A DNA stretch of 64,000 nt from Dictyostelium discoideum (lineage: Eukaryota). Shown here one piece after another: positions 14,687-62,790 of the stretch. The notes beneath the pieces are model-generated. The model worked only from the letters and a program-made list of their open reading frames with translations. It was not told where the DNA came from and did not search any database. The position numbers and the translations under genes were made by a program. Positions within the stretch are counted from its first letter, which is position 1, and each line of letters begins with the position of its first letter. The DNA is taken from contig CM000153.2 of assembly GCA_000004695.1 (NCBI GenBank), positions 4,544,001 through 4,608,000 of the forward strand, given 5' to 3'.

Positions 14687-14719
<33 letters not shown>

Positions 14720-16349: not shown

Positions 16350-19334
<2,985 letters not shown>

Positions 19335-19675: not shown

Positions 19676-19680
<5 letters not shown>

Positions 19681-19725
<45 letters not shown>

Positions 19726-22479: not shown

Positions 22480-22579
22480 NNNNNNNNNNNNNNNNNNNNN
22501 NNNNNNNNNNNNNNNNNNNNNNNNNNNNNNNNNNNNNNNNNNNNNNNNNNNNNNNNNNNNNNNNNNNNNNNNNNNNNNN
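22480..22579. other. Assembly gap (100 N).
   Basis: Run of n. Confidence 1.
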
Positions 22580-39061: not shown

Positions 39062-39099
<38 letters not shown>

Positions 39100-39745: not shown

Positions 39746-39785
<40 letters not shown>

Positions 39786-39863
39786 AAAAATAAAAAAATT
39801 TGGATCAATTCTTTACTTTTACCAAAAAAATATTTTCAAGGACTTTGGGATTTTCAAAAAATT

Positions 39864-39908
<45 letters not shown>

Positions 39909-40277
39909 TAATAGAAGATATTTTCCTTATTTAGAAACTTTGAAACTAAAAAAAGTAAAAAAAAAAAATTTTATTCCTAGCCATTGTTCAAAAATAAAAA
40001 AACAAAATTATATTTTTAGAATTTGATAGACAGAATGATTACATTCATTTTTTTTATAATTTATATAATTTTGTGCCATTTGGAGTGTTCTATTTATCTA
40101 TACTAAATTCATAATATAAATAAAATTAATTCATTGTTACAAATAAAATAAAAAAAAAATAAAATGAAAAAAAAAAATGAAAATTTTTTTTTTTTTTTTG
40201 TCAAATTTGACAATATTTTCATTTTTTATTTTTTATTTTTTTTATTATACGGTTTTTGGTTAAATTAATCAATATTT

Positions 40278-40309
<32 letters not shown>

Positions 40310-40315
40310 AAAAAA

Positions 40316-41343
40316 ATGTTATTATTCAGAAATTTAAATAAAATTAATAAAAATAATTTAATTTTAAATATTTCAAAAAATATTCAAAAATCATCTTCAT
40401 CATTATCATATTCAACAAATGTTTTAAATAAAACCAATCAAGTTAATAATAATAATATTGAAAATGAAGAAAGTGAAGATATTAATAATGAAAATTATTT
40501 AAAACATTATAGTCAATCAAGAGAACAAATGATGAATGATTATAAAGATAAAACTGGTAAAGATATTTATGAATCAAAAGCTAGACCAATTACACACACA
40601 ATTAAAGAATTTAGAAAACAATTTAAAGATCAATTAGAAAATGGCAGTAAATTAACAGACATTGAACAACCAATCATTTTAGCAGGCCGTGTTAAATCAA
40701 TCCGTATCTCAAGTAATAAACTAGTATTCATTGATATTAATTCATCATTAACAAATCAAGAGATTTCATATACTGATATTATTCAACAGCAACAACAACC
40801 ACAACAAAATAGTGATAGTAATGAAAATAGTCGTATTAAAGGTGGTCAATATTCACTTCAAGTTATGGCAGATAAAAAATTTTATAAAAATTCATTAGAA
40901 TTTGAAAATATTATATTAAATTTAAGAAGAGGTGATATTATTGAAGTTAGTGGTTTACCAGCAAAAACTAAAGTTGGTGAAATTTCAATTATACCAATTG
41001 AAATCAATATTTTAACACCATGTGTTCGTCCAATTCCACAGAAATTAATTGATAAAGAAATTCGTTATAGAAATCGTCCATTGGATTTCTTAGTTAATCC
41101 AACAACTCAAAAACCATTTTATATTAGATCAAAAATGATTACTTATCTTCGTAAATTCTTGGTTGAAAAAGGTTATTTAGAAGTTGATACACCAATTTTA
41201 TCAACAAATGTTGGTGGTGCAAATGCAAAACCATTTAAAACTCATTCAAATTCTTTAAATTTAGATTTATTTTTAAGAATTTCACCAGAATTATTTTTAA
41301 AAGTAAGTATCACATATTATTTTTTTAATTTAAAATTTATTTA

Positions 41344-41390
<47 letters not shown>

Positions 41391-42258
41391 AAAAAAGCAA
41401 TTAATAATTTCAGGATTTGATAAAGTTTTTGAAATTGGTAAACAATTTAGAAATGAAGGCATTGATTTAACACATAATCCAGAATTTACAACATGTGAAT
41501 TTTATCAAGCATATGCAGATTATGAAACAATGATGACAATGACAGAGGAATTATTAAGTGGTATGGTTTATGATACATTGGGTAGTTATGAGGTGGTGTT
41601 ACCATCGAATCCAGATATTAAAATTAATTTTAAAGGACCATATCAAAGAATTAATTTCATTGATAAAATTCAAGAACTTACTGGTAGACAATTGCCAGAG
41701 GATTTAGTATCATATGATTGTATACCTGAATTATTGGATATTTGTAATGAGAATAATATAAGATGTAAAGAACCATATACACCAACTAGAATATTGGATG
41801 AAATGGCATCGACTCTATTGGAACCATTATGCATCCAACCAACATTCATCCAAGATCATCCATTGGCAATGTCACCATTGGCAAAGATACACCGTAATTC
41901 AGCACAACGTACTGAAAGATTCGAACTATTCGTCGGTGGTAAAGAATTGGTTAATGCATACAGTGAATTAAATGATCCAAAAGAACAAAGAAAAAGATTC
42001 CTCGCTCAATCAATGGATCGTACAAGTGGTGATGAAGAAGCTCAAATACTTGATGAATCATTTTGTAATTCATTAGAATTAGCATTACCACCAACTGGTG
42101 GTTGGGGTTTAGGTATCGATCGTTTATGTATGTTATTCTCAAATACAACTACAATTAAAGATGTTATATTATTCCCAACTATGAAACCAATTAATCAACA
42201 AAAACAAGATAATAATCAACAACAACAACAACAACAAGAACAAGATAAAAAAGTATAA
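40316..42258 (+). CDS. Lysyl-tRNA synthetase (class II). 2 exons: join(40316..41302,41398..42258). Intron 41303..41397 has donor GTAAGT and acceptor AG. The N-terminus looks like a mitochondrial presequence, so this is probably the organellar isoform.
   Basis: The spliced junction gives [56 protein letters not shown]. This matches the class II motif-2 region of LysRS ([52 protein letters not shown]). Motif 3 is GGWGLGIDRLCMLFSNTTTIKDVILFP. The OB anticodon-binding fold lies upstream. Confidence 0.9.
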
Positions 42259-42342
42259 ATAAATTTTATTTTATTTTTTATTTTTATTTCTTCTAAAAAT
42301 TCTATTTGTTTTGTTTTTTGTATTTTATTTTATTTTATTTTA

Positions 42343-43173
<831 letters not shown>

Positions 43174-43625
43174 TTTACTATATAAATTTACTAATATTTA
43201 ATAAAAAATATACAAATAATAAAAAAAAAAAAAAGAAATAATAATATTAAAATATAGGGGTATCGTGTTCAATGATAATAAAAAAAAAAAAAAAAAATTG
43301 AATTTTTTTTTTTTTTTTCTTTTTTTTTTTTTTTTTCAGTCCACCTCTTTTTATTTTTTTTTTTTTTTTTTATTTATCGATTGATCCTTTTTTTATTATT
43401 TTTTTAAAGTAAAAACACAATAAATTAAATTTAATTTTTTATGATAAAATTAATTCTAATTTCTTTTTTTTTTAATTATTTTAATTATTTTTTTTTTTAT
43501 TTTTTTATTTTATTAATATTTACAAGTTTCCAAAGAATATCATTTTTTTTTTAAATTTTCTTTTTCTATACATAGGTTATTTTTTATATATTAAAAAAAA
43601 TAAAAAAAAAAATAAAAAAAATTGA

Positions 43626-44016
43626 TTATAAATTATCTTCATCTCTAATTACAGCTTCTTCACCTAAACTATTTTTAATTTCTTTTAAAACTTCTTTGGC
43701 ATCAATTCTATCCTCACAATCTTCAATTACTAAATGTACTTCAACTTCTGATGATGGTGCAATATTTAATATTTGTAACATTTCACCTGTTAAAATTTTA
43801 CAACCTGATGTATCTGCTAATTTAGTTACACTCTTTTTACATTCTTTAACTGATTCAATGGTTTGTTTTGATGCTGGTGTTGTTTCTAAATATCTAATTA
43901 CATTATTAACAAATTCATTTAATAATACTTGTTCCTCAATTCTTCTTTTATGTTTTAATAGTTGAAGTACTTCAAAATTTGTAATAATTTCTTCTTTATC
44001 TTTTTTTATTCTAAAA

Positions 44017-44051
<35 letters not shown>

Positions 44052-44182
44052 AAAATAAAAAAAATTATAAAAAATAATAAAAAATTATAAAAAATTATAA
44101 AATTTTTTTTTTTTTTTTTTGATAATATTAGAAATTGAATATGTTTTAATAATATTTCGATTATTATTTTTTCCTATTTTAC
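43626..44182 (-). CDS. RNA polymerase III subunit RPC9 (Rpb4-like; CGRP-receptor component protein homolog). 2 exons: join(43626..44010,44175..44182). The first coding exon is only 8 nt (ATGAAAAT). Intron 44011..44174 has donor GTAAAAT and acceptor TTTTAG.
   Basis: The spliced product MKIKKDKEEIITNFEVLQLLKHKRRIEEQ...KILTGEMLQILNIAPSSEVEVHLVIEDCEDRIDAKEVLKEIK aligns with human CRCP/RPC9 (LLSNYEVFQLLTDLKEQRK...[40 protein letters not shown]). The plus-strand ORF 43696..43965 is antisense junk. Confidence 0.7.
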
Positions 44183-44406
44183 ATTTTCATTTCAACTTTT
44201 GAAAACTTTTGCCAACAAACTACCAATTTTTATTTTTTTTTTTTTATTTTTTTTTTTTTTTCACAATTTTTTTTTTTTTTTTTAATTTTTTTTTATTTAT
44301 TTTTATTTTTTTTATTTTTATATATTTTATTTTTTATTTTTTTTTTTTTTAATTTCAAATTTTTAATTTTTAATTCAAATAAATATAAATATATAATATA
44401 CAAATA

Positions 44407-46411
44407 ATGGTTAAAAGTAGAGATTCTGATTCCGATGATGATTTGGATGAGGAGTTATTTCAATTAACTGAAAAGAAATCAAATAAAAGAGTATATTATT
44501 TATATGAATATTCATTATTTATTAAATTATTTTATTATTATTATTAATATATACTAATTTTATTAATATTTTTATTTATATTTTATTTTTATCATTTATT
44601 ATTTATTATAGATTAAATCAAATGAATCAAGTGATGAAGATTTTGAAGAAAATAAAAATAAAAAAAAGAAAACATCAGGACCAGGTAGAAAGAAAGGTTC
44701 AACATCAATGCAACAATCAACTATAAACTATGGTAGTAGTCGTAGGAATAGAGGTGCATCAATTGAGAATGATGATGATTTTAATGATGGTTATGATGAA
44801 GATTTATATAAAGATGATAATGATAGATATGAACTTTCATTATTACCAGAAATTGATAGAGAAAATATATTATCAGAAAGATATGAAAAGAGAAAAGAAG
44901 CAAGAGAACTTTGGTTACAACAAAAATCAATTAGAGATAGAGAAAAGAAATCTGGTTCACAAGTTGACAATAAATTAAAATCACAATCATCAACTAGAGG
45001 ACGTAGTGAAAAAGAGGATAGACAAAGAGAAGCATTAAAAGATTTACAAAAGAAAAGAGAGAAATCTAAAAAAGATAAAGAAGAGGAGGAGGATAGCGGC
45101 GGTGGTGGTGGTGGCGGTACTACAGGTAGTGCATCAAGTAGTAATAATAACACACCAACTTCATTATCAGCCAATTCAACACCAAAAACTTCATCATCAA
45201 GAATTGAACAAGATAATCGTGATAGAGGTAGAGAAAAAGAGAGAGAACGTGAGCGTGAACGTGAACGTGAAAGAAATATAGAGAAAGAGATTCAAAGATC
45301 AGTTGATACATTAAATATCAACTTAATGAATCAATGTAGATTATCAAGAAATATGTTGGTTAAATGGGTTGATCAACCTTATTTTGAAAGGTATGCACCA
45401 AACTTTTTCGTACGTGTTGTTATTGGTTCACATTTAAATAATCCAATCTATAGAATTGCAGAGATTGTTGAAATTCGTACAGGTCATAAACAATATAAAG
45501 TAGAGAATAAAGAAACTGATAAACTTTTGGTACTATCCTATGCTGGCTCAACTAAAGAGTTTGGTATTGAGAATGTTTCAAATAATGCAATCACACCAGC
45601 CGAACACGAGAAATGGATCTCTGATATGGTACGTGCTAAACAAGTTTTACCAACACCTGAAGAGATTGATATGAAGATTGGTGATATTAAGAAAGCTCAA
45701 GATTATACCTACACCAATGAAGATATTGAAAAGAGAGCATCTGACAGAAGTAAATATCTAAAGACTCCTGTCAATATTGCCATTGAAAAGGCGAAATCAA
45801 TTGCACTTCGTGAAACATTGGATCCACAATCACAAGAATATAGAACCATTTGTGAGAAAATTGAAGAGTTGACAAAGTTGGCAATAAGCATTAAAGAAGA
45901 GAATGTTTCAAAGGTTGATCAATTAATTCAAACCATTAATAAAAAGAATAAATCATTAAACTTTAAATATCAATCAACTACTCAAACTTCAACTGAACAA
46001 GTTTCAAATGAATTTGATCCATTTGCAAGAAGAAAAACTAGAAATTGTGCTGTAGTTGCTGCTGATACTTCAAGTATAGTCATTTCACCAACCAATTCTA
46101 CAACTCCAACTACTACCAGTCCAATTAATGCTACTTTATCACCATCTGCTCAATTTTTAGAGAAATCAAAAAATTCAACTACCACCACTTCCACTAATGA
46201 TTCTAATAATACTCGTTCACTTTATGACGTTCATAGATCAATCGATTTAAATATTCATATTCCTGATCATCCAAATAAAATTTTATCAATGCAACCAAAA
46301 AGGAAAAGACAAATCATTCCTGCAAATATTGTTAAAAATGATCATTCAATGTTTAAAAATATTTTATCATTAAATGAATATTTAATTAAAAGAGATTCAA
46401 TGGTTCAATAA
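44407..46411 (+). CDS. rtf1: RTF1 homolog (Paf1-complex subunit; Plus3 domain). 2 exons: join(44407..44490,44612..46411). Intron 44491..44611 has donor GTATAT and acceptor TATAG.
   Basis: The Plus3 domain is clear: LSRNMLVKWVDQPYFERYAPNFFVRVVIGSHLNNPIYRIAEIVEIRTGHKQYKVENKETDKLLVLSYAGSTKEFGIENVSNNAITPAEHEKWISDM. Acidic and basic low-complexity N-terminus. The short first exon (MVKSRDSDSDDDLDEELFQLTEKKSNKR) joins in frame. Confidence 0.8.
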
Positions 46412-46676
46412 AATAAAATAATAAAAAAAATAAATAAAAAAAAAAGAATATTAATCTTGAAATACAATATATTTGTTTTGTTTTTTTTAGCAATTAATAA
46501 AATTAAATAAATTTGTAATAGGTTGATAATGTTTTCTATTTTCAAGCAAAACACCAAATATTTAAATAAAAGTAATAATAAAAGAAAACACACAATAAAA
46601 AAATCATTTTAAAATATACATATATTATTATTTTTTTTTGATGTTTTTTGAAAAAAAAAATTTATTTATTCAAATC

Positions 46677-47594
46677 TTAATCAAAGAGACCCATACCCAT
46701 ATCATCATCTGATTCTTCTTTCTTTTCTTCGACGACGACTTTCTTGGCAGCGGCAGCTGGAGCAGCAGCGGATGGAGCGGCAGCAACTGGGGCAGCAGCA
46801 GCGGCTGATTTGAATTTTTCAGCAGCATCGAAAGTGTAAGAGGTTTCGAATGAGATGGCTAATAAATTCTTGAAAGCATTCATGACTGAATGTGGAATTG
46901 AAGCAACGGTTGGGTAACCAATTTCCAAGGAGATGGCAGCAATGTTGAAGATACCTTGTTTGAATTTGTTGATGAGATCTTCTTCAGAGATAGATGGTGA
47001 ATAACAGGCACCAGCATCATAGATGATTTTTGGTTCTAAACCATAGGTGAATGGTTTGATGTTCAATTTTTGTAAGAGGGTAGCTTCTGAGGCACCAACT
47101 TTTTGACCGGTTTTAATGATGTGGACTTCATTGACGATATCGATTTGACCTCTGTTGATTTTAGTGGCAATCTTTAAATCTTGGAGGAAAGAGGTTTGGG
47201 TTGGTTCCATACCAGTTGGACCGGCTGGGATGATAACATCGTTTGGAGCGAAAACACCTGCTTTAGCTGGGGCACCAACACGTTGAGTATTGATAACACG
47301 TTTAACTTCAGCGATGTTATCTTTACAGAAAATGATACAGGTGTTTTGTTTTAAGTAGGTATTTAAGGCATCGAGTTCTGGTTTAGAATCAGCTAAATCA
47401 CGGATGACCTTACGGATCATAGTCTTCTTACCCATGAGAACGGCACCGATACCACGGATGGATTTTCTGATCTTTTGTAATTGGCTTGAACCTACAAAAT
47501 CAGCTTCGGCGACGATCATTTTGTCGTAAGTGGTGAAAAGCTTGGTAGCTTTTTCAATGAAAACGTTCTTTCTTTTACTTCCTGCCCCGGACAT
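46677..47594 (-). CDS. rplp0: 60S acidic ribosomal protein P0 (uL10), 305 aa, single exon. GC content is markedly elevated (a highly expressed gene).
   Basis: Full-length collinear match to P0: MSGAGSKRKNVFIEKATKLF...VGSSQLQKIRKSIRG.AVLMGKKTMIRKVIRD..., and the C-terminal acidic stalk tail ...EEKKEESDDDMGMGLFD. Confidence 0.95.
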   Translation of the reverse strand: MSGAGSKRKNVFIEKATKLFTTYDKMIVAEADFVGSSQLQKIRKSIRGIGAVLMGKKTMIRKVIRDLADSKPELDALNTYLKQNTCIIFCKDNIAEVKRVINTQRVGAPAKAGVFAPNDVIIPAGPTGMEPTQTSFLQDLKIATKINRGQIDIVNEVHIIKTGQKVGASEATLLQKLNIKPFTYGLEPKIIYDAGACYSPSISEEDLINKFKQGIFNIAAISLEIGYPTVASIPHSVMNAFKNLLAISFETSYTFDAAEKFKSAAAAAPVAAAPSAAAPAAAAKKVVVEEKKEESDDDMGMGLFD

Positions 47595-48515
47595 CTTGTT
47601 GTGTATGAGAATTTAAAGATAAAGTCTGATAATAATAAAAATTATAATTAATATTCAATCCTTTATCAATTATTTTTTTTTTTTTCTAATCTAATCTTTA
47701 ATCTTTATAGATATATGATCAAATTAATGTCATAGTTTCGTTAAAGATTAAAGATTAAATATGTGATATGTAATCATCTCTGTCTAACTATCCATCAATC
47801 TCAATCAATATAAAATTATACATACAATACTGAGACTAAACTTTGAAAAAAAAAAAAAAAAAATTTTTATAGCCCCGCACAAAATTTTTGGAAACGAAAA
47901 AAAAAAAAAAATTTTCTCAATTTTTTCAGCATATCCCCATAAAAATAATAACGTTTGATTATTTATTTATGAATGTAAATAATCTATTTATATTTTCAGA
48001 TAAAATTCTCAAAAATTAAAATTATATATAAATAATATATAATATCTTTTAAAAAATTCAAATAAAAAAGAGATTAATTTTTTGAGATATAAAAAATTAA
48101 AATAATTATTATATTATAATAATAAAAAAAAAAAAAAAGGAAATAAAAATACAAGAAAGAAATACAAATTATATTAAATAAATAAAGGTATTTATTTTCA
48201 CCCCTACCACTTCTTTTTCTTTATTTTTTTTTTATTTTTTTTTATTTTTATTTTTTTTTTATTTTTTTTATTTTTTTTTTATTTTTTAAAATTTGTTTTT
48301 TATTTTTTATTTTTTAAAATTTATTTTTTATTAAAAAAAAAACAAAACGGAAAAAAAGACAAAAAAGATATTATAACATAAAATAGTTTATTTTTTTCTT
48401 ATTATCATATAAAAAAATAAAAAATTTTAAAAGAAAAAAAATAAAAAAAATAAAAAAATAAAACAATAAAGCAATATTATTAAAAATAAAAAAAAAGTTA
48501 AAATTAAATAATAGT

Positions 48516-48520
<5 letters not shown>

Positions 48521-48583
<63 letters not shown>
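48521..48583. repeat. (AAT)21 microsatellite immediately 5' of the ACMSD start codon.
   Basis: Direct reading. It ends 3 bp before the ATG at 48587. Confidence 0.9.
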
Positions 48584-48585
<2 letters not shown>

Positions 48586-48586
48586 T

Positions 48587-49761
48587 ATGGAAAATAAAGA
48601 AACTACAACAACAACAACTACAACAAATAATGGTAGTGATAAAAAAAAAAGAAGTTTAAAAATTGATTTACATACACATATTTTACCAAAGAATTGGCCA
48701 AATTTAAAAGAGAAATATGGTTATGGTGGATGGGTGTCGTTAGATCATCATTGTTCATGTAAAGCAAAGATGATGATAGATGGTAAATTTTTTAGAGAGA
48801 TCGATAGTAATTGTTGGGATCCAGATGTAAGAATTCAAGAGTTAAATAGGGACGATGTTGATATCCAAGTTTTATCGACAGTACCAGTCATGTTTGGGTA
48901 TTGGGCCAAACCTCAAGATGCATTAGATTTAGCACAATATTTAAACGATCATATAGCACAAGTAGTATCAGAGAACCCAAAACGTTTCATTGGTTTAGGA
49001 AGTTTGCCAATGCAATGCACAGAGTCATCGATTCAAGAGTTACGTCGTTGCATTTTAGAGTTGGGTTTACCAGGTATTCAAATTGGTAGCAATGTAAATG
49101 GAAAGAATTTGGACGACCCATCTTTATTCCCAATCTTTGAGGAATGTGAGAAATTAGGTGCTGCAGTTTTCATTCATCCTTGGGAAATGGTGGGTAAAGA
49201 TAGAATGCCACAATATTGGTTACCTTGGTTAGTAGGTATGCCTGCTGAAACTTGTTTAGCCATTTGTTCAATGATTTTCGGTGGAGTTTTCCAACGTTTA
49301 CCAAATTTAAAGGTTTGTTTTGCTCATGGTGGTGGCTCATTTCCCTTTACTATTGGACGTATCGAACATGGTTTTAATGCTCGTCCAGATTTATGTGCTG
49401 TCGTTAATCCAATTAATCCTCGTGAATACATTGGTAAATTTTGGGTTGATTCTTTAGTTCACGATGAAGAAGCTCTTAAATTTTTAGTAAATTTAATGGG
49501 TGAAAAAAAGGTAACATTAGGTACTGATTATCCATTTCCTTGTAAGTAAAATTTAATTTTTTTTTTTATTATATATATATATTCACCAAGAGAGAAATAT
49601 TAATTACTTTTTTTTTTTTTAAAAAAACTTCAAAAGTGGGCGAATTAGTTCCTGGTCAATTAATTGAATCAATTAAAGAATTTAGCGAAACAACTAAAGA
49701 AAATCTTTTAGGTGGTAATGCATTGGAATTTTTGGGGTTGGATCCAAATAAATATTTATAA
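48587..49761 (+). CDS. acmsd: 2-amino-3-carboxymuconate-6-semialdehyde decarboxylase (ACMSD; amidohydrolase-2 family). 2 exons: join(48587..49541,49637..49761). Phase-1 intron 49542..49636 has donor GTAAGT and acceptor AG.
   Basis: LKIDLHTHILPKNWPNLKEKYGYGGWVSL.HH...CWDPDVRIQELNRDDVDIQVLSTVPVMFGYWAKPQDALDLAQYLNDHIA...[62 protein letters not shown]...LGTDYPFP|LGELVPGQLIESIKEF is near-collinear with human ACMSD (MKIDIHSHILPKEWPDLKKRFGYGGWVQL...[54 protein letters not shown]...GTDYPFPLGELEPGKLIESMEEF). Confidence 0.9.
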
Positions 49762-50245
49762 ATACATACATTGTTTTTTTTTTTTTTTTTTTTAGAAACT
49801 TTTTTTAAATTTTTTTTTTTCTTTAAAAAAAAAAAACAAATACAAAAAAATAAAATAAAATAAAAACAAAGGAAAATATTTTAATTTTATTCTTTTATTT
49901 TTTTATTTTTTTTTATACCTATTAAAGTTAAATCTTGATTTTTACCATTGGTGTTTTAGCAATATTTAAACAATTAACAATTTTTATTTTTTATTTATTT
50001 TTCTCAATTAAGTGTAATAGGTTTTGTTTTTTATTGTTTCCAAATCTTTAAAATAAAGTATTTATTATATTTGTAATTATGTTTTTTTTTTATATTTCCT
50101 ATTTTTGGTATTGTTTTTGAAATAAAATTAATTTTATTTTCATTTTTATTTTTTTGACAATTAAACTTTAAATAAAAAATTTAAAAATCTTATTGAAATA
50201 TAAATTAATATTTAAAATTGTTTTATTTTATTTTAAAGGTGGTTT

Positions 50246-51140
50246 TTAAAGTTTTGTACCAACACCAATATAACTGTATGATTTTAATTGTAATTTATTA
50301 TTTTCTAAAGATCTTTTTGGATTTTTTGATTTTGCAATTTCAATAAATAGTGAATCAAATTTTAATTTTAATTCATCAGTATGCAATAGATCTAAACAAT
50401 CAACATATGCAGGATTACTTTTTAATAATATTGAGAGATCTGATAATTCATTTACTTCTAATGGATGTTCAATTCTTGTAATTGAAACATCAATAAAACC
50501 AACTGATTCTAAATGATTTTTAAATTCCAATTCATTTGAAAGTGATGATGCCAATTGTTTGTGAGTTGTTGGTTTACCATTATTTTGTTCTGTTAATAAT
50601 TGATTTAAAGTTTCTCTAAAGATTTCTGGTAAAAATGAATCGGAGCACCATGATGCAATTGCGGTACGACTTTGATTATTTGATTTTAAAACTCTGTACA
50701 TTTCTTTCATGCCTTTTATTAAATCTGGAAAGAAAATTAATCCAAATATACTAAATGTATAATCAATTGAATCATTTTCAATTGAAATTAAATTCTGACC
50801 ATCCATTATATGGGTTTCAATATTTTTTAAATCATTTTCTTTAATGATTTTATAAAGAATTTCAATCATATTTGTTGAGAAATCAGTTGCAATAAATTTG
50901 GAGTTTTTTAAAAATTTCATTCGCTACAATTGTTAATGGTCCTGTACCACATGCAATGTCTAATATTTTCATTGGTTTTTCTTGATTTTCTTTTGGAATT
51001 GTTAAATTTATTGCATCAATTGCAAAAAGAGTTGTAAATCCAGTTGGTTTTGCAAAATTGTTTAAAAAAACTTGGGCAGTTTTATCCCATCCTTTTGATG
51101 ATGTTTGATTTAAATTGCTTTGAATATTTTCTAATGACAT
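50246..51140 (-). CDS. Class I SAM-dependent methyltransferase (Methyltransf_11/25-like). The coding region is interrupted by a +/-1 frameshift between 50886 and 50935, so as assembled it is a pseudogene or carries a sequencing error.
   Basis: ORF 50883..51140 carries motif I (KILDIACGTGPLTIVANE). ORF 50246..50920 carries the remainder of the Rossmann fold (FIATDFSTNMIE...IMDGQNL...FSIFGLIFFPD...MYRVLKSN). The two ORFs are offset by one nucleotide and overlap across gaaatttttaaaaaactcc (T5/A6 runs). No GT...AG intron fits. Confidence 0.65.
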
Positions 51141-52365
51141 TATTAAAAATAAAAAAAATTAAAAAAAAAAAAAAAAATTTTTTGATAAAAATAGATGTTG
51201 TGGAAAAAAAAAAAAAAAAAAAAAAATAATTCAAGTTTCTTTTTTTTTTTGGAAATCAAAAAGAAGTTTATTTTAGAATAAATAAATATAAATTATATTT
51301 TTTTTTGGGTTTTTTTTTTTTTTCGATATTTTGAAACCAATCCCAATAAAACTAAAGGTTTATAATTATTTTTTTTTATTACCTAAAAATCTTTTTTTGA
51401 TTTTTTGATTTTACAATTTCAATCCAAATTTTATATTTTATTCATTGAACTGTAGTTCTTTTATAATGAGAATGGAATATTTTATATTAGTTATTTATTT
51501 ATTATTTCATTTGTTGGAATTGCAGGTGAAAAGAAAACAACAGGATTTCCCCATAATAATAAACTGGTAACAAGCAATTGAAATTTTTTGATGGGTCGCG
51601 ACGTTTATAAATTTATTCTCCATATCAACCATTCTTGAAATGATTACAGAGTTTTACCATTCTCACCAATTGCAGTGTCTGTGGTATTTGGACCTGCATG
51701 ATCCAATAAAGTTAGTGGATTTGGTATTTGAATATTCATTCTATTTTTAAATTTGTGAGGGTGAATGTATTTTTTTGCGTTTTTTTGCGGTGTTTTGCCT
51801 TTTTTATAAATAATAGGGACCATTTTTTCTAAAAAAAACCAAATATAATAAATTAGGTGTACTGGTTTATTGAATTTAATTATAATTATTATAATAAGAT
51901 AAACAAAAAAGAGATTAATAGTTTATTTGTATATTTAAGATAGTAAAGAAAACACAATGATTTTGATTTTTATTTAATATTTTTAGAGTATTTATATTAA
52001 TTTTTTTGAGTACCAGGATTAACCTTCTAAAGTCAGTTAGTATTTAATATTATTTATTGTAACGACAAACCTTCTAAAGTCGGTTATGACTAGTAACTGA
52101 ATTATATTATGATTCTTATGATTTCCATATTAATATCAATACATAAATCCAAGTTAGTTTTTTTTTTTTTTTAATAACATCACTCAATTTGAGTGTGTTC
52201 TAGGAGAGTTTATTTGTTTTTTTTTTTTTTTTTTTTTTTTTTCTTTTTTTCTTGTTATTCTTATTTTTTTTTTTATTATTATTATTATTATATTATTATT
52301 ATTATTATATTATTATTATTATATTATTATTATTATTATATTATTATTATTATTATTATTGTTAT

Positions 52366-52409
<44 letters not shown>

Positions 52410-53722
52410 AGTAGTTGGTGTTATATGAGCAGTATGGTATGAAGTGTTCCGGGATGTTTATGGTCATGAGTTTCGAGTTCCAGTTGTGGCTGAATTTTTC
52501 GAGTCTTCTTTTTATTGATGCGGTCCGATTGATTGACTCTCGGTTATCAGTGCATCTTAGTTCTTGACGTAGTTGTTTTTCTACTATCTTTCTTGTTCTA
52601 TCCCATTCGGCATCTCTCGCTTTTTTGATTTTATGAATTATTTGGTTCTCTGTTATTATTGTAGTGTTATCGTTGAATTTTATTTGATTTCTTCTGTACC
52701 ATATCGATTCCATAATGGCTCCTATCAGATTTGATGAGAATGGTGTGAGTAGTTTTCCGAGAACTTTTTCGCTCCATGGACCGTGGTAAGTGTTGTTGGA
52801 GTCTTTACAGACCTTTTGATAGATTGAGTCGATATTCTGTTTTATTGATTTGCATTCGAAGAAGATGTGCATAGACGATTCTTCTTCTTTACATGAGTGG
52901 CAATTCTCCCCATGGTGTTTTGGAAGTGCCTTGAGTAGATATCTCCATGCTAAGTCTCTTCCTTTGATAGTTGTGATTGATCTGGCTTCTCTGAATGGTA
53001 GAATTGGGTGATTAATGTTCTTTTGAATCAGTTTTTGACCTGTTGTTGGCTGGTGTTTGTTCCATCCCTTGTATTTGATATCCATCATGTTTCTATAGAT
53101 TACTTTTAATTTTTGTTTGTTTTCGTATTTGGGTTTGACTTGGTTTAGTTTGAGAGTTATTCGCTCTCTTGGGTGGTGCAACAACTTCCAGGCTTTCCAG
53201 CATTTGATGTGAATCCTTGATAGTGAGTTTTCTTTTTCCGACTTCCAGACTTCCATATGTGGAGGGCAGTTCTGGTCGTCTTTTTCTCTGAGGTATTGTT
53301 CGTATATCCATGCTTTCTGGGCATTGGATCTGGTTGCCATATTCCAGAGTTCCAGGCCTCCAATTTCATAGTCTCTTCTGCTCCTTTCTTTTGAGATAGC
53401 CCACCTGTCCCCTTTGAATAACATGTTGGCATTAACGTTCTCCAGTTTCTTTATGTCATTTATTTCGTTGATGTATAGTTGGAATGTTAGTTGGGACAGC
53501 AGGTATGATTTGAGGATTGTGATTCTACCTTTTAGCGTTGATGACACGCTCGAATAGCATTTTGTGAGGTTTTCCAGTTTGTTCACCGTATCATCTACTT
53601 TGCTTATTACACCTTTGCGGTTGAAGAAAAAGCCAAGATATCTTTCTTCTTCTTTCGCCCCAATTGTCTTATATTTGGTCTTTATCTTTGGGTTTTTAGT
53701 GATGCACACACATTTATTATCG

Positions 53723-53822
53723 NNNNNNNNNNNNNNNNNNNNNNNNNNNNNNNNNNNNNNNNNNNNNNNNNNNNNNNNNNNNNNNNNNNNNNNNNNNNNN
53801 NNNNNNNNNNNNNNNNNNNNNN
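53723..53822. other. Assembly gap (100 N) inside the TRE5-A-like element.
   Basis: Run of n. Confidence 1.
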
Positions 53823-54252
53823 AAGTGTTGTTGTTGATGTTTTTTCTCTTACTGATTATTTTTTCCTTTTTTTTGAAAATTTTGCGAAGCAAAATTTTCA
53901 AAAAAAAGAAAAAAATAAATTACAATAAAATAAAGAAATAAAGAAGTTTACTCTAAGTGTATTTTATTTTATTTTTTTTAAGTCTTTTTTTTATATGAAA
54001 AATGAAATAATCAAATAAAAAAAGTGTTGTTGTTGATGTTTTTTCTCTTACTGATTATTTTTTCCTTTTTTTTGAAAATTTTGCGAAGCAAAATTTTCAA
54101 AAAAAAGAAAAAAATAAATTACAATAAAATAAAGAAATAAAGAAGTTTACTCTAAGTGTATTTTATTTTATTTTTTTTAAGTCTTTTTTTTATATGAAAA
54201 ATGAAATAATCAAATAAAAAAAGTGTTGTTGTTGATGTTTTTTCTCTTACTC
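53823..54252. repeat. Tandem repeat with 199-bp unit, 2.15 copies (53823..54021, 54022..54220, partial 54221..54252). Interpreted as duplicated TRE5-A A-modules.
   Basis: The unit (aagtgttgttgttgatgttttttctcttactgattatttttt...) recurs with near identity. The third copy diverges after ...tttctcttact, which marks the element's 5' end. Confidence 0.7.
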
Positions 54253-54293
54253 GTTAGTTTTAATATGGTGAATTTTTATTCAAATTTCACCAA

Positions 54294-54367
54294 GCCTTAG
54301 TAGCTCAGTTGGTACGAGCGTGAGACTGAAGATCTTAAGGTCGCTGGTTCGATCCCGGCCTGAGGCA
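54294..54367 (+). tRNA. tRNA-Phe (anticodon GAA), 74 nt.
   Basis: The cloverleaf folds by hand. Acceptor GCCTTAG/CTGAGGC plus discriminator A. D-arm GCTC-AGTTGGTAC-GAGC. Anticodon stem TGAGA/TCTTA with loop CTGAAGA. T-arm GCTGG-TTCGATC-CCGGC. Internal A box TAGCTCAGTTGG and B box GGTTCGATCC. Confidence 0.95.
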
Positions 54368-54370
54368 AAT

Positions 54371-54376
54371 TTTTTA
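54371..54376 (+). terminator. Pol III terminator T-run (TTTTTT) 4 nt after the tRNA 3' end.
   Basis: aaaTTTTTTattt directly follows the discriminator base. Confidence 0.6.
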
Positions 54377-54405
54377 TTTCACACCCCCCAAAATACAGAT
54401 CGCAT

Positions 54406-54416
54406 GTTCGACTCCC
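54406..54416 (+). promoter_or_regulatory. Extra B-box ('ex-B', GTTCGACTCCC) 38 bp downstream of the tRNA-Phe coding region.
   Basis: The sequence is a near-copy of the internal B box (GGTTCGATCCC). It sits in the 20-45 bp downstream window where Dictyostelium tRNA genes commonly carry a second B box (established for this organism). It lies between the tRNA and the TRE3 target-site duplication. Confidence 0.55.
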
Positions 54417-54438
54417 ATATAAAAATATAGAAAAAACC

Positions 54439-54456
54439 ATTTCACCCACAGTTAAA
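54439..54456 (+). repeat. Target-site duplication, left copy (ATTTCACCCACAGTTAAA), of the TRE3-like insertion.
   Basis: An identical 18-mer recurs at 57042..57059, immediately after the element's poly(A). Confidence 0.75.
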
Positions 54457-55122
54457 ATGAATTTTTTCGATAAACTTAAAGGTGAACTCAACTTTGGCGA
54501 AGAAGAGTTAAATAAAAAAACTATTCAAATAAGGTTATTCTACCCACATACCTTGGAATTGAATAGTAATTCAACAAAATTAATAGATAATTTCATAGTT
54601 AATGGTACTCTTAACATTGTCAGAAGACAAAAGGGTATAACAGTATTCGGTAGAATACTAAAAGAAAAATTCACATTATTACACGAGTGTTACAGCACTT
54701 TCAAGTATGAAGATTTTCCACTGCAAAAATTCATACTTTACACCCCAGGATATCACTATGTCCACTTTTACACATTTACAAAAAACATAATAAAAAAAAT
54801 AAACAATCAAATGGTAAAAGAAAACTGGGGATTGGAGCCATTACTAATAGATGAATGCAACATAGTACTGCTACCAGATGTGATTAGATATTCATGCATA
54901 CTATTATTTAATAAAGAAGATGATATCTCAATCATTGATGCTATAAAAGGTAGTAAGCATCCAATAAGAGCCTTCATCTCTGAATATAACAATAAAGAAA
55001 TAAGAGATGTTAGAAAAAAAAAAACACAAGTAATAAAAACCAACAACCAACAACTACAAATACAACTAAATCAATACCATCAACTCCACCAACAACTAAT
55101 GCATCAACAACCACACCAATAA
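54457..55122 (+). CDS. TRE3-like ORF1 (221 aa).
   Basis: Intact ORF starting at the element's 5' boundary. A Thr-rich region follows in another frame. Confidence 0.6.
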   Translation: MNFFDKLKGELNFGEEELNKKTIQIRLFYPHTLELNSNSTKLIDNFIVNGTLNIVRRQKGITVFGRILKEKFTLLHECYSTFKYEDFPLQKFILYTPGYHYVHFYTFTKNIIKKINNQMVKENWGLEPLLIDECNIVLLPDVIRYSCILLFNKEDDISIIDAIKGSKHPIRAFISEYNNKEIRDVRKKKTQVIKTNNQQLQIQLNQYHQLHQQLMHQQPHQ

Positions 55123-55318
55123 CAACCACACCAATAACAACCACACAAACAACAACCACACCAACAACAACCACACATCAATTACCAACAAGCAATACAA
55201 CAATCTACAACCTAAACAAAACTACTACTACTACTACTACTACTACTACAAAACCTATCAATAAAATTACTACAAGCAATGGTACCAAGTTTCCAATTGC
55301 CAGTAGTATTAGAAAATA

Positions 55319-56506
55319 ATGGAACAATTAAAATTATTACTATGGAACTGCAGAGGTAATCAATCAACCAACGCTAAGAATAAAACAGAAGAAACGATAA
55401 AAAGAATTGGCACTCAATTAGCACTCCTAACTGAAACTAATTTCAATGGATTCAACCACCACAAAACAATGTTCAACTTTGAAAGAATAGATCATGGTTC
55501 AGGTAAAGGAACTGGCATAGCAATAGAAAATAGAGATACAAGAAAAGGCCACATATCAATAAACTTCAAAGACGATGATGGTAGAATACTATCAATTAAA
55601 TACAATTCCTTTAATTCTATCAACATATTATTGATCTATGCTCCAGCGACTATATCTGAAAGAAACACCTTCATAATCAACTCAAAATCACTGTTTAAAA
55701 AATATAATTCAATCAACCATCAAATAATAGCAGGCGACTTCAATAACAACCACGATTGCAACAGCTTCTTCGGTACTGAATTACGTAAAATAATAGACCA
55801 AGACATGCTACTAGATACTGGTATTGAAGATAACACTCCAACATTTCCAAGATCAATGAAGAGACTAGATAGAATCTACTGTCATCCAACACTACTAAAC
55901 CAAAATTCAAAACTGGTAGTCCACAACACAGTATTTAACAAATCAGATCACTTTCCCATCACAATCACAATACAAACCAACAGAGAAACAACAACAACAA
56001 CAACAACCAAACTAGAAAGACTCCCTTGGACATTATGTAAAGAAATTCTCAACAACAAACATATACATGATGGGTTATCAGAATTAATCAGTAAGAACAA
56101 AGATAAGATCAAATCAGTGGAGGAATGGACGAAATTTAAAAATAATGTCATCAGAGATTATTTAAAAAAAGAACAAAACAAAATAAAGAAAGAAAAGAAC
56201 AAAAGAAAATACGTAATCCACAAATTACTTGGAAATAGTGATATCATTCCAAAGATGAGAAAAGAACTCAATGAAGAAATAAGTAGAATATTAGAAGAAG
56301 AAAGAAAGGTAAAAGCATGGGATATCAAATTAAAACTCCACCTGCATCAAGAAACACCAAGCAAATACCTCACAAGTATCCTTAAATCCAAGATCACTTC
56401 CAGGTATCAACCACGAAAGAGACACCAGATGCAAGATCTGTGGCCACCTTTTCAGAGACCCTTATTCTCACCTCTTCACTCTATGCCAAGATATCCTAGA
56501 TATTGA
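55319..56506 (+). CDS. TRE3-like ORF2, truncated. Holds the apurinic/apyrimidinic-endonuclease-like domain only, with the RT deleted.
   Basis: LWNCRG, IAGDFNN and SDHFPI motifs of L1-type endonucleases. No FADD RT motif anywhere in the element. Confidence 0.7.
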   Translation: MEQLKLLLWNCRGNQSTNAKNKTEETIKRIGTQLALLTETNFNGFNHHKTMFNFERIDHGSGKGTGIAIENRDTRKGHISINFKDDDGRILSIKYNSFNSINILLIYAPATISERNTFIINSKSLFKKYNSINHQIIAGDFNNNHDCNSFFGTELRKIIDQDMLLDTGIEDNTPTFPRSMKRLDRIYCHPTLLNQNSKLVVHNTVFNKSDHFPITITIQTNRETTTTTTTKLERLPWTLCKEILNNKHIHDGLSELISKNKDKIKSVEEWTKFKNNVIRDYLKKEQNKIKKEKNKRKYVIHKLLGNSDIIPKMRKELNEEISRILEEERKVKAWDIKLKLHLHQETPSKYLTSILKSKITSRYQPRKRHQMQDLWPPFQRPLFSPLHSMPRYPRY

Positions 56507-57041
56507 AAAAACCATCATATCAACAGTTAACAAATTATCATTCATCAAAATCCACAGATGGTCAATGGAAACCTTAGACATATCAAAATACAACAGAACT
56601 GAGAGAATCTTCCCCAATCTCATAGGAATAATAGCACACCAATTATGGAAGATAATCTGTCACAAATTGTTCAACACTGATGAAAGCAAACCAGAGCCAA
56701 AATTCGAACAAAAGGTCATAGAAACAGAATTACTAAATCTCATCGAAACTGAAAAATTCATCACACTAAAGAAAATCAAACACGACGAAGCAATACTAAA
56801 AAACACCAATCAAGATCTTCACAAATACAAATTCAACAAAGCCTGGCAAACCCCAGCAGCTCCGAACCCTCTTCCAATTTAAGTAGTAGTAAAAAAAAAA
56901 AAAAAAAAAAAAAAATAATATAATATAGTTTAAAAAATTTAATACAATTGAATAATAAAAATAAAACCGTTTAACAAACACCGCCGAAAAGACACAAGGA
57001 CATTCCTTGAAGGTCTGATCACAGGTAAAAAAAAAAAAAAA

Positions 57042-57059
57042 ATTTCACCCACAGTTAAA
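57042..57059 (+). repeat. Target-site duplication, right copy (ATTTCACCCACAGTTAAA).
   Basis: Identical to 54439..54456. Confidence 0.75.
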
Positions 57060-57183
57060 TTAATTATTTTTATTTCTTTTACTGGGATAATTGAAAACAT
57101 TAGAATTTAAACATTTCTTTTTAAAATTCAAATTCCTTAAATAAAGCTATTAATTATTCTATATTTCCTTTAAAGGATAAACT

Positions 57184-57191: not shown

Positions 57192-57222
<31 letters not shown>

Positions 57223-57241
57223 TCATACCCAACTATATTTT

Positions 57242-57275
<34 letters not shown>

Positions 57276-57294
57276 TCATACCCAACTATATTTT

Positions 57295-57334
<40 letters not shown>

Positions 57335-59486: not shown

Positions 59487-60368
59487 ATGAATTCAATTGA
59501 AAATAATAATAAAAATAATAATAAAAATAATAATAAGATTTGGTTAATCACAGGAACATCAAGTGGCATTGGTTTAGAATTAGTAAAGAAGTTATTAACA
59601 TATGGTTATAAAGTTTCAGCATTAACTCGTAGACCAGAAGAAATTGAAAAAGAGATTAAAGAAATTCAATTTGAAAAAGATAATTTATTAATTGTTAAAA
59701 CTGATATTACAAATAATGAATCAGTAAAGAGTGCAGTAGAAGAGACTATTAAACAGTTTGGTAGAATTGATGTGTTAGTAAATAACGCTGGTTATGGTTT
59801 AGTAGGTTCAATTGAAGAGTTATCAGATTCAGACGTTAGAAAGATATATGATGTAAATGTATTTGGTGTTTTAAATTTATTAAGAAATTCAACACCACAT
59901 TTTAGAAAACAAAAATCAGGTTTAATAATTAACATATCCTCTCAAATGGGTTGGGATAATATGGAATATTACTCAGCATATAGTTCAACTAAACATGCAG
60001 TTAATGCAATCACATTCTCTGCACAAAAAGAGTTAAAAGCATTTGGAGTGAATGTAATATTAGTTAGTCCAGGTGGATTTAGAACTGGTTTTGTTGCTGG
60101 TCAACAATCAAACTTTCAAGTACCTTCAAAATTAATTGATGAATACTCAACTCAATCATTCATTGAAATGTTTAATAAACACTCACCATATTCAAAAGGC
60201 GATCCTGAAAAAGCAGCTGAACTCTTAATTAAATTACCAACAATTGAAGAATTACCAAATAATTTATTCATTGGCTCTGATTCATTATCAGCTGCCAAAC
60301 AACAATTACAATCACATTTATTAGAAGCTGAAAAATGGTATGACCTTTCAATTTCAACTGATTATTAA
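59487..60368 (+). CDS. Short-chain dehydrogenase/reductase (classical SDR), 293 aa, single exon.
   Basis: Cofactor-binding motif TGTSSGIGLEL (TGxxxGxG), NNAGYG, and catalytic S...YSAYSSTKHAV (YxxxK). It has an Asn/Lys-rich N-terminus (NNNKNNNKNNNK). Confidence 0.85.
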   Translation: MNSIENNNKNNNKNNNKIWLITGTSSGIGLELVKKLLTYGYKVSALTRRPEEIEKEIKEIQFEKDNLLIVKTDITNNESVKSAVEETIKQFGRIDVLVNNAGYGLVGSIEELSDSDVRKIYDVNVFGVLNLLRNSTPHFRKQKSGLIINISSQMGWDNMEYYSAYSSTKHAVNAITFSAQKELKAFGVNVILVSPGGFRTGFVAGQQSNFQVPSKLIDEYSTQSFIEMFNKHSPYSKGDPEKAAELLIKLPTIEELPNNLFIGSDSLSAAKQQLQSHLLEAEKWYDLSISTDY

Positions 60369-60637: not shown

Positions 60638-62135
60638 AATTTAAAATACACACACCCACAATCTGAAATGATTCCAAACCAGATTTAAAAAAATGGGTTT
60701 GGAAATATATTTATTGTCAATTAATTTTTTTTTTACAATTTAATGTCGTTCATTGTTTTTGTAATTATTTATTTTTAACTTTGTTTTCAATTTGAATTTT
60801 TTTTTTTTTAAATGAAATAGCACTGGTACTTATAATGATGATTAGGATTTAATTTTTCATTTTATTACTATTCAACTACTAATAAAAAATTAATTTACAC
60901 TTTGTGTGGAAACCTTTAAGATGCAAATTAAGTGTTTCTCTTAAATGTAAAATGAGGTAAACATTATTGATTTATAAATTAATGGAATTCGTGAATAAAT
61001 ATTAAAAAAAAAAATAAAAAAAAAATGGAAATTAATTATCAAGTATTAATAATTCATATTTTTTAGGCATTGAAACAAAGAAATTCAACAAAATAATTAG
61101 TTATTATTACAAAAGCTTTTGATATTAGTTTGCCCATTTCTTATTCCTATTTCCTTGATTCCCATTTCCTGTTTTGGAATGAAAAAAAAAAAAAAAGTTT
61201 GGCATTCGGTTGGAAAAATAAAAAATAAAAAATAAAAAATAAAAAAAATAAAAAAAAATAAAAAAATAAAAATGAAATTTATGACATTATAAAATTTTAT
61301 ATTTATAGGTTTTTTTTTTTTTTCAAAATCACACTTTCATACCTGTCATAAAAAAAAAAAAAAATTATTATTATTACAATAATTTATCTTTAAAGTAAAT
61401 TAATAAATAAAGTAGTGAAATTGATTTTATTATTATAATTTTTTTTTTCCTTTTTTCTAAACAGATTTTTATTTTTTTTTATTTAATTTTAATGTAATTT
61501 TATTTTTTTTTATTTTTTTTTTTATTTTTTTTTCAATCACAACAGCCAACAATTTTTTAACAAAAAAAAATATCTTAAAAAACATATTTAAAAAATTTAA
61601 AAAATAAAAAAAAAAAAAAACGATCGTTGTTGAAAAATGTTAAAACATTGCAAGGTGGACAAATTATTTTTTTTTTTTTTTTTTTTATTTTTTTATTTTT
61701 TTATTTTATTTTTTTTTTTTTTTTTTTTTTTTTTTATTAAAAATGAAAATATATGACCACCAAATCGCTATTGATTATTATTGATTTCTTCCATACAACC
61801 TTCACATCAATGTAATCTTTAATATACAACCCAAACACCTTTGTATTATCAAAAAAAAAAAAAGAAAAGAAAAGGAAAAACAAAAGCAAAATAATATAAT
61901 AAAAAAAAATTACCTCAAAACAGAAAGAGTTTTTTTTTTGAGGAATTAATTTTTAAAATAGTTATTTTTTTTATTATTATATTTTATTTTTTTGAGAGAA
62001 TTTCTATTACAATTAATAATCAAAAAAAGGTAATTTTTTAAAAACTTTAATTATTTCATACTTTCACAATTTTTTTTTTTTTTTATTTTTACCATCTTAT
62101 CGAATCGAACAATCAAAAAAAATTTTCAAAAAAAA

Positions 62136-62167
<32 letters not shown>

Positions 62168-62790
62168 AAAAAAATATAAATCAAATTGATATAAAAATAT
62201 AAACATAAAAAAATAATAAATTATCATAAAACATTTTTCAAGCAAAGAAAGTGTCGTTGTTATTGTTTTTTTTTTTTTTTTTTGTGTGTATTGTAGGGGT
62301 AAACCAACACATCCAAACATTGAAATAAAACTGATTTGTTTTTGTGTTGTGTTGTGTCGGTGTGGTCTTTTTTAAATCTTTTTTTTCTTTTTTTTATTAT
62401 TATTTTTAGTCTTTCACACCTTTTTTTTATTTATATATACTATTTTATATAATTTCTACAAATGTTATAATCAAAATTAACAAACCAAGCACACTTATAA
62501 CCCCACATGTGATTAAAAATTAAAAAAAAAAAAAAAATAAAAAAAAAAAAATAAAAAAAAACTTAAAATTATTTATATTATTATCATTATTATTATTTTT
62601 TTTTTTTTATATTTTTACCTTTTATTCTTTATCTCAATGATAAATATAATTTTAATTTTTTAATTTATTTTTAACCCATTTTGTTTATTTGCGTGTTGAA
62701 GTTTTTTTTTTTTTTTTTTTTTTTTATCATCTCTCTATTTGTACATTTAATTAAATTTGTAAAACTACCCATCAATTTCTTTTATTTAAA

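Follow-up and report, generated by a model that had tools for sequence, protein, structure and literature searches.

We analysed a 64,000-nucleotide stretch of Dictyostelium discoideum chromosome 4 (AX4 chr4:4,544,001-4,608,000; G+C 22.5%, two 100-N runs), referred to below as the window. It contains the tRNA-Phe gene PheGAA-12, and we conclude with high confidence that this gene was struck independently by two non-long-terminal-repeat (non-LTR) retrotransposons that target tRNA genes. A TRE5 element, most likely TRE5-B, lies upstream of the gene, and a dead TRE3 element, most likely TRE3-C, lies downstream. The tRNA-Phe gene had been named in a first-pass annotation made from the letters alone, and it was confirmed: ARAGORN and Rfam (RF00005, 62.5 bits, E 5.8e-12) agree on one tRNA for the whole window, located at 54294-54367 on the plus strand, and identify it as tRNA-Phe(GAA). 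An offset of 4,544,000 puts it at 4,598,294-4,598,367, exactly the published coordinates of PheGAA-12 on chromosome 4 (S2 Table, PMC5391098). The A box (TAGCTCAGTTGG, 54301-54312) and the internal B box (GGTTCGATCCC, 54346-54356) lie within the gene on the plus strand. From what is established about RNA polymerase III (Pol III) termination, the T6 run read from the sequence at 54370-54375 on the plus strand is the terminator of the gene. Loci compared with the window carry L numbers.

The extent of the upstream element was determined with L012, the orthologous locus from a gapless long-read assembly (GCA_054883475.1), which is probably that of the AX2 laboratory strain (bioRxiv 10.1101/2025.08.01.668227). 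L012 1-15119 corresponds to window 38570-53722, and L012 19432-21175 corresponds to window 53823-55566, with an identity of 99.7-100%. The run of 100 N between these segments (53723-53822) hides 4312 bp that L012 carries without a gap (15120-19431). The hidden sequence comprises the rest of open reading frame (ORF) 2, ORF1, a B-like 5' untranslated region (UTR) and 3.3 further 199-bp units. In L012, the upstream element is one contiguous TRE5 on the minus strand, 6290 bp long from one target-site duplication (TSD) to the other (13572-19861). Read from its 5' end, it consists of 199-bp units, a B-like leader, ORF1, ORF2, an A-rich 3' UTR bearing a microsatellite, a terminal hairpin and a poly(A) tail. 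ORF1 encodes 454 aa. ORF2 is in two pieces, one of 402 aa with a weak endonuclease match (Exo_endo_phos, E 2e-4, under the Pfam cut-off) and one of 724 aa with the reverse transcriptase (RT) domain RVT_1 (E 1.3e-37). This copy is full-length yet defective and non-autonomous, with a single interruption of ORF2 between the endonuclease and the RT.

The 5' end of the TRE5 faces the tRNA gene. The element ends at 54252 and the tRNA starts at 54294, with 41 nt between them and opposite orientations. The first-pass annotation had placed a TRE5-A-like copy on the minus strand about 42 bp upstream; the TRE5 type and the strand hold, the spacing is 41 nt, and the TRE5-A label does not survive the comparisons given below. 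The tandem repeats it had seen on the tRNA-proximal side are real. Tandem Repeats Finder gave a period of 199 with 2.2 copies at 100% identity at 53823-54251, and these 'A-module'-type 5'-UTR units form the element's 5' end on the minus strand (53823-54252). L012 has 5.45 such units versus the 2.2 visible in the window; apart from the first two bases of the outermost unit, they do not differ from each other. The first 88 nt of the element have counterparts at TRE5 5' ends in L001 (91%) and L011 (88%). In other strains, relatives of this TRE5 stand at other tRNA genes, 47 bp upstream of tRNA-Thr in L001, 48 bp upstream of tRNA-Leu in L003 and 48 bp upstream of tRNA-Val in L011. The published TRE5 distance is 34-95 bp upstream of the tRNA gene, in opposite orientation (PMC5006619 Table 1; PMC5391098; PMC5911963).

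At the other end, the C-terminal 438 codons of ORF2 (the RT end, then a Cys/His region) are visible in the window at 52405-53722 on the minus strand, open to the stop at 52405-52407; the frame of 438 codons itself spans 52408-53721. This part is 82% identical to protein P0004 and 54% identical to P0005, both of which carry RVT_1. The stop codon is fused to a run of 39 A (A39, 52368-52406) inside an A-rich 3' UTR with a (TAA)n microsatellite (52217-52407, minus strand). The element had earlier been thought to end here, at about 52400. It turned out that the T-run at this place is an internal poly(A): homology to the independent L001 copy continues via (TAA)n to a 44-nt segment and a second poly(A), so the A39 run is not the tail of the TRE5. 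The real tail, seen as T15 on the plus strand, occupies 52158-52172 (element on the minus strand), and the homology to L001 reaches 52158. The layout of ORF2 stop, A-rich or microsatellite tract and terminal hairpin is common to L001, L003 and L011. The 44-nt 3'-terminal segment (52173-52216, minus strand) contains the hairpin CACTC-AAATT-GAGTG, kept in three TRE5 lineages with compensatory changes: CACTC/GAGTG in the window, CACCC/GGGTG in L001 (12590-12637) and CATCTC/GGGATG in L003 (about 11540-11580) and L011 (about 10570-10612). The hairpin in L015 has an intermediate C·A mismatch. A 3' hairpin is needed for TRE5-A retrotransposition, as published, and the conserved hairpin of the window is in line with that.

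The TRE5 is flanked by the 9-bp TSD GTTAGTTTT. The proximal copy (54253-54261) adjoins the element's 5' end, and the distal copy (52153-52161) runs with its last four T into the poly(A) tail. Taken by itself, the 9-mer lacks significance, with 3 matches in the window versus 2 expected; its support is the exact abutment to both termini. The same arrangement recurs in L012. The tRNA-Phe 5' flank is present a second time at 51803-51848 (…AATAATAGGGACCATTTTTTCTAAAAAAAACCAAAT), past the TRE5 3' terminus. This extra copy matches the L013/L014 flank (-52 to -10) at about 38 of 42 positions, more closely than the tRNA-proximal flank of AX4 itself does. Between the extra copy and the TRE5 3' end lie about 300 bp of AT-rich DNA without a match (51849-52152). 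The extra copy may have been left by an older insertion, located at about -10, that duplicated CAAAT. A DGLT-A solo LTR of about 300 bp considered at 51849-52152 was dropped, as the segment matched none of the compared loci, including a probable LTR element in L004.

As to the subfamily, the upstream element is probably TRE5-B, an assignment that we hold with modest confidence and that was reached by elimination of TRE5-A and TRE5-C. The TRE5-B consensus has 5971 bp, and TRE5-C is represented by an 879-bp consensus with no full-length copy (PMC5006619 Table 1). The element measures 6.29 kb when its 5.45 units are counted and about 6.0 kb when only 4 are, and these lengths are compatible with that of TRE5-B. 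Several points weigh against this reading. The letters B for the TRE5 and C for the TRE3 are based on elimination, length and one published peculiarity, not on reference sequences. The 199-bp units match what we take to be the 'one or multiple A modules' arrangement (AnB) of DRE/TRE5-A. The terminal hairpin resembles a published feature of the C-module, which is said to be absent from TRE5-B (PMC3159450), and this hairpin is shared with another lineage at roughly 75% identity.

It is therefore possible, and to our minds a tentative second choice, that the element is TRE5-C or an unnamed TRE5 lineage. In that case, the reference gap would have concealed the sole long copy, and the TRE5-C consensus would have stayed short for this reason; the AX4 reference shows just 1.56 kb and 0.43 kb of this TRE5. 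The last 51 nt of the element fold at -12.8 kcal/mol at 22 °C, near the published -12.52 for TRE5-C, although the two energies come from different programs and their agreement may be a coincidence. However, the visible 1.56 kb already exceeds the 879-bp consensus, which this copy would have lengthened, and a length of about 6 kb fits the TRE5-B consensus. The published positions T15, C26, A35 and C38 of the TRE5-A C-module were also compared with the 3' ends of three lineages, and none fits; their numbering is uncertain, and we did not rely on them.

It is very unlikely that the element is TRE5-A (DRE), the layout of which would be tandem A-modules and a B-module before ORF1 and ORF2, with BC at the 3' end. 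With 102 copies, TRE5-A is much more abundant than any other TRE5. Its A-module has a published length of 200 bp (PMC3159450) and occurs once or several times, and the element has 5.45 tandem tRNA-proximal units of 199 bp. The ORF1 product of 454 aa, about 52 kDa, is also near the published 51 kDa (PMC5911963). However, the first ~90 nt are found again at the 5' termini of further TRE5 lineages, so A-module-like units are evidently shared beyond TRE5-A. Several lineages have the architecture in common, and ORF2 is only 54-57% identical to that of another multi-copy TRE5 lineage. TRE5-A.1 has the structure AB-ORF1-ORF2-BC and 5647 nt, with a 290-bp B-module duplicated into the 3' end (PMC3159450, PMC5006619). 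No such 5'/3' duplication was found in the complete element: compared with itself, it shows the tandem 199-bp array and nothing else, and it aligns colinearly with the L001 element, with no indel of 290 bp. The length of 6.29 kb, or 5.4 kb with one unit, also differs from 5647 bp. As proxies for TRE5-A ORF1/ORF2 sequence identity, we used five primers (Rep-75, Rep-176, Rep-108, Rep-109 and Rep-190) taken from PMC4559204 and PMC5391098 (S1), which serve the Winckler laboratory for endogenous TRE5-A. With up to 3 mismatches allowed, none of the five occurs in the complete element; the nearest approximate sites differ at 7-9 bases and lie at unrelated positions. The peptides of two primers for a codon-adapted TRE5-A ORF1 are absent from the translation of the element, and residue 10 of its ORF1 is Thr versus Ile in TRE5-A (PMC3159450). 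The missing primer sites together with the missing 3' B-module indicate that this element is something other than TRE5-A. In searches for named TRE proteins, only 'hypothetical proteins' of recent Dictyostelium assemblies matched, in a collection without the AX4 transposon ORFs, and six 14-19-mers from the element termini gave no match in a full-text literature search.

The downstream element could be delimited to the base. The 18-mer ATTTCACCCACAGTTAAA occurs in exactly two copies in the window, with up to 2 mismatches allowed and 0.03 chance matches expected. The left copy lies at 54439-54456, or +72 to +89 from the tRNA end, and the right copy, at 57042-57059, abuts a poly(A) tail. Between them lies a TRE3 of 2585 bp (54457-57041) on the plus strand, as the tRNA; it begins with ATGAATTTTTTCG at +90 and ends with A15. 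An independent copy of the same family in L002 begins at the identical nucleotide. The exact 18-bp TSD claimed by the first-pass annotation is thus upheld. Its TRE3-like copy 72 bp downstream is indeed of TRE3 type and in the same orientation, and 72 bp is the position of the first TSD base, the element itself beginning at +90. In a check for a dispersed motif among 15 other loci, three of which hold other copies of this TRE3 family, the 18-mer was found only at L012, the ortholog from the near-identical strain; being unique to the window and its ortholog, it is not a dispersed motif. That it is a chance repeat or a dispersed motif rather than the boundary of an insertion is hardly credible, with two exact copies, no near copies, its absence from all the other element copies and compared loci save the ortholog, and direct contact with the poly(A) tail at one border and with the conserved first nucleotide of the family at the other.

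The TRE3 ORF1 starts from the first base of the element (54457-55122, plus strand) and has a premature stop after 221 codons versus 291 aa in the L002 copy. [quoted passage not shown] Its C-terminal part (56394-56882, plus strand) is in another reading frame, carries the Cys/His motif CKICGH...HLFTLC and has 16 homologues in Dictyostelium species. The 3' UTR with the A15 tail (56883-57041, plus strand; tail at 57027-57041) has 98% identity with the L002 and L016 copies at their 3' termini. The two parts of ORF2 meet at a deletion junction (56389-56390, plus strand; CCTTAAATCCAAGATCACTTCC) with 2 nt of microhomology (CA), and its flanks match undeleted copies in L002 and L016. Window 54454-56390 corresponds to L002 8973-10912, and window 56389-57042 corresponds to L002 15688-15036 and to L016 9284-9947, with about 98% identity. 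Both the L002 and the L016 copies run on into sequence missing from the window TRE3. To estimate the length of the family, we joined the L002 copy (positions 1-3358) and the L016 copy (from 2154 up to the end); over the 1184 bp common to both, their identity is 99.5%. The rebuilt length is about 4.45 kb. The window TRE3 lacks family positions of about 1935-3802, that is, 1.87 kb including the whole RVT_1 domain, which is present in the sister copies in L002 and L016. With a premature ORF1 stop and a lost RT, the window TRE3 is a dead relic. The first-pass annotation had overlooked this loss.

We consider it unlikely that the 1.87-kb deletion is an assembly collapse in the Sanger-era AX4 reference and that the true locus has a full TRE3 of 4.45 kb. 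The reference does have a gap inside the neighbouring TRE5, and L012 covers the locus only to window position 55566, short of the deletion junction, which weighs against our reading of a real deletion. However, the sequence to either side of the junction is unique, and the microhomology there is a clean 2 nt. The AX2 annotation also has one product of 744 aa from the ORF1 ATG, near the 740 aa of ORF1, APE and the C-terminal part of the deleted copy; among gene models with one or two introns, none gives exactly 744 aa.

If the deletion is real, as we believe, the RT-less TRE3 could have been retrotransposed as an already deleted RNA, mobilised in trans by full-length elements, rather than deleted after insertion. 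We regard this as a doubtful scenario, kept open by the family-typical first nucleotide, the poly(A) tail and the perfect 18-bp TSD. Like TRE5-A.2, a non-autonomous ORF2-deleted element mobilised in trans, the window TRE3 is internally deleted and has intact termini, poly(A) and perfect TSDs. Unlike TRE5-A.2, which keeps its ORF1, it belongs to the TRE3 family and its ORF1 is broken, and no second copy with the same junction was found among the few TRE3 copies compared. If it was mobilised in trans, this copy would be a non-autonomous TRE3 derivative similar to TRE5-A.2, of a kind undescribed for the TRE3 family.

Downstream of the right TSD, at 57196-57326, we found A25, CTTCATACCCAACTATATTTTC, A31, the same 22-mer again and A37, with a period of 53 and 100% identity. 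This looks like a poly(A)-only, extremely 5'-truncated retroelement insertion with a 22-bp TSD. In the coordinates of the empty site, it lies about 250 bp 3' of the tRNA, inside the widest published TRE3 range.

The downstream element is most likely TRE3-C, as the length of the family and the likeness of its RT to that of TRE5 suggest. The consensus lengths are 5229 bp for TRE3-A, 5279 bp for TRE3-B, 4734 bp for TRE3-C and, as a partial sequence, 1559 bp for TRE3-D (PMC5006619). Since long copies exist in the family of the window, TRE3-D, which has no long consensus, is unlikely. At about 4.45 kb, the family falls short of TRE3-A and TRE3-B, and its RT stands as near to TRE5 as to another TRE3. 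The RT, taken from the sister copies, is 40.6% identical to that of a different TRE3 in L002, which has 5266 bp and is A- or B-like, and 41-46% identical to three TRE5 RTs. It has been reported that the RT of TRE3-C groups with TRE5 rather than with other TRE3 elements (PMC5006619). The rebuilt length weighs against TRE3-C, being 280 bp under its consensus.

TRE3 elements are found 40-150 bp downstream of tRNA genes and share their orientation (PMC5911963), the widest range being 14-305 bp (PMC5006619 Table 1), and the position (TSD +72 to +89) and orientation of the window TRE3 are inside this range. Sister copies in L002 and L016 also stand downstream of tRNA genes at similar distances. In L016 (7480-10495), a paralogous tRNA-Phe locus that is probably PheGAA-13, a pair of 5'-truncated copies of this family, 2313 and 495 nt long and arranged in tandem, is enclosed by one shared 16-bp TSD GAAAAAGGTTCTTTTA at +66 to +81.

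Between the tRNA gene and the TRE3 lies the external B box (ex-B) GTTCGACTCCC (54406-54416, plus strand). Its core GTTCGACTC (54406-54414, +39 to +47 from the tRNA end) agrees with the published core GTTCRAnYC, and the extra B box of the first-pass annotation is therefore correct apart from its start, given there as +38. An ex-B with this core is found about 41 bp 3' of 66-80% of D. discoideum tRNA genes (PMC3159450, PMC5911963). It is kept at the same place in four isolates (the window and the orthologous loci L013, L014 and L015), while the surrounding spacer varies by substitutions and indels. The paralogous locus L016 also has an ex-B, at +34. The TSD of the downstream TRE3 starts at +93 from the internal B box and at +33 from the ex-B; the corresponding values in L016 are about +87 and +32. 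At 62100-62175, what might have been another B box or a piece of a TRE proved to be low-complexity sequence with no tRNA or RNA family match.

We compared the locus with its orthologs in other isolates. The window itself carries, at 48587-49549, a 318-residue exon that is 100% identical to AX4 ACMSD (2-amino-3-carboxymuconate-6-semialdehyde decarboxylase, XP_637693), and the orthologues of other isolates are 94-98% identical. Both AX4 insertions are missing at the orthologous loci of three other isolates (L013, L014 and L015). L014 has neither TRE element at the orthologous tRNA-Phe. L013 has 5'-truncated TRE5 copies (13790-14860) 47 bp upstream of its tRNA-Phe with a different TSD, (A/T)(A/T)TTTAATAGGGATC. 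L015 has a 360-nt 3' fragment of the TRE5 family of the window (13120-13483) with another TSD, ATTGAAGACT. Distinct TRE5 insertions with distinct TSDs in L013 and L015 indicate that the tRNA-Phe gene was struck repeatedly and independently. Since both window insertions are absent from the three isolates, they are probably younger than the split of the AX4/NC4 lineage from these isolates, as far as can be judged from sequence comparison. A point against this is that the intergenic DNA of the other isolates is 80-86% identical with many indels, and the empty sites are not alignable base for base. The empty-site check proposed in the first-pass annotation thus gave the absence of both elements from the three loci and, with such diverged flanks, no empty site at base resolution.

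Two further differences were seen in these loci. The orthologous L013 and L014 lack the 2.2-kb segment 58762-60969 of the window, which includes an intact ORF for a short-chain dehydrogenase (59487-60368; Pfam adh_short, E 1e-53); this is a gene presence/absence difference beside the tRNA locus. A repeated unit of about 440 nt adjoins other TRE5 copies in one isolate (L011 10622-11060; L004 16376-16727 and 10440-10610; L013 13985-14290, minus strand). It is made up of a TRE5-type 5' end, a leader, about the first 70 codons of an ORF1, and poly(A), and may represent a TRE5 derivative with extensive deletions.

Our analysis covers the geometry, orientations, duplications, poly(A) tails, domain content and polymorphism of the locus, and the mechanism considered here is taken over from published work on TRE5-A. 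The ORF1 protein of TRE5-A binds TFIIIB subunits, and targeting requires intact B boxes (PMC3159450, PMC5006619, PMC5911963). In such a mechanism, TFIIIC on the B boxes and TFIIIB upstream would mark the tRNA gene for integration (PMC3159450, PMC5006619, PMC5911963), and the ORF1 protein of the TRE5 would contact TFIIIB. The ORF2 endonuclease would nick about 40-50 bp upstream of the tRNA gene, and target-primed reverse transcription would start at the poly(A) end. TRE3 would take a B box, internal or external, as a downstream reference point. The stagger of the two nicks would give the 18-bp and 9-bp duplications. Nicking with target-primed reverse transcription would thus explain both the fixed orientation and the duplications.

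The window TRE5 resembles its family in its place 41 nt upstream with the 5' end facing the gene, in ORF1 and ORF2 with endonuclease, RT and Cys/His regions, in its poly(A) and TSD, in the ~200-bp repeated 5'-UTR units and in the 3'-terminal hairpin. In contrast to TRE5-A, it has no 3' B-module, no TRE5-A primer sites and a different length. The window TRE3 is likewise typical of its family in lying downstream in the same orientation beyond the ex-B, with a poly(A), a TSD, an APE domain and a C-terminal Cys/His motif, and differs from it in the absence of the RT and in the premature stop of ORF1. The first-pass assignment of the two elements to TRE families rather than to unrelated repeats is right at the family level and, for the upstream element, wrong at the subfamily level. 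Yeast Ty3 and Ty1 also use the Pol III complex (TFIIIB/TFIIIC) as a landmark for safe integration beside tRNA genes. However, they are LTR elements with an integrase and do not use target-primed reverse transcription, and Ty3 inserts at the transcription start. To our knowledge, yeast has no element aimed at the downstream side of tRNA genes.

All distances at this locus are inside the published ranges (34-95 bp for TRE5, 14-305 bp for TRE3 and about 41 bp for the ex-B). The first-pass annotation had suggested that they could test the spacing rules. This is a weak expectation, because the locus is one of roughly fifty double-occupied tRNA genes, and the rules were derived from all of them; to rules derived from hundreds of loci, one locus adds nothing. 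A TRE is carried by 61% of D. discoideum tRNA genes and both kinds by 13% (PMC5006619), so the locus is of a known type. Both this type and PheGAA-12 itself are already known and catalogued, and the gene was used in the genome-wide TRE5-A integration profile.

The practical value of the locus is for annotation. The reference gap conceals 4.3 kb of one contiguous TRE5, whose 3' end lies beyond an internal poly(A) tract, and the TRE3 is a relic without its RT. Tandem units of 199 bp are not in themselves diagnostic of TRE5-A. The second 100-N assembly gap of the window lies at 22480-22579. Profiling of de novo integrations of tagged TRE5-A found PheGAA-12 with 2, 390 and 184 reads in three libraries (PMC5391098), which indicates that the gene is still an active target. 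The locus shows one tRNA gene that was targeted independently in different isolates.

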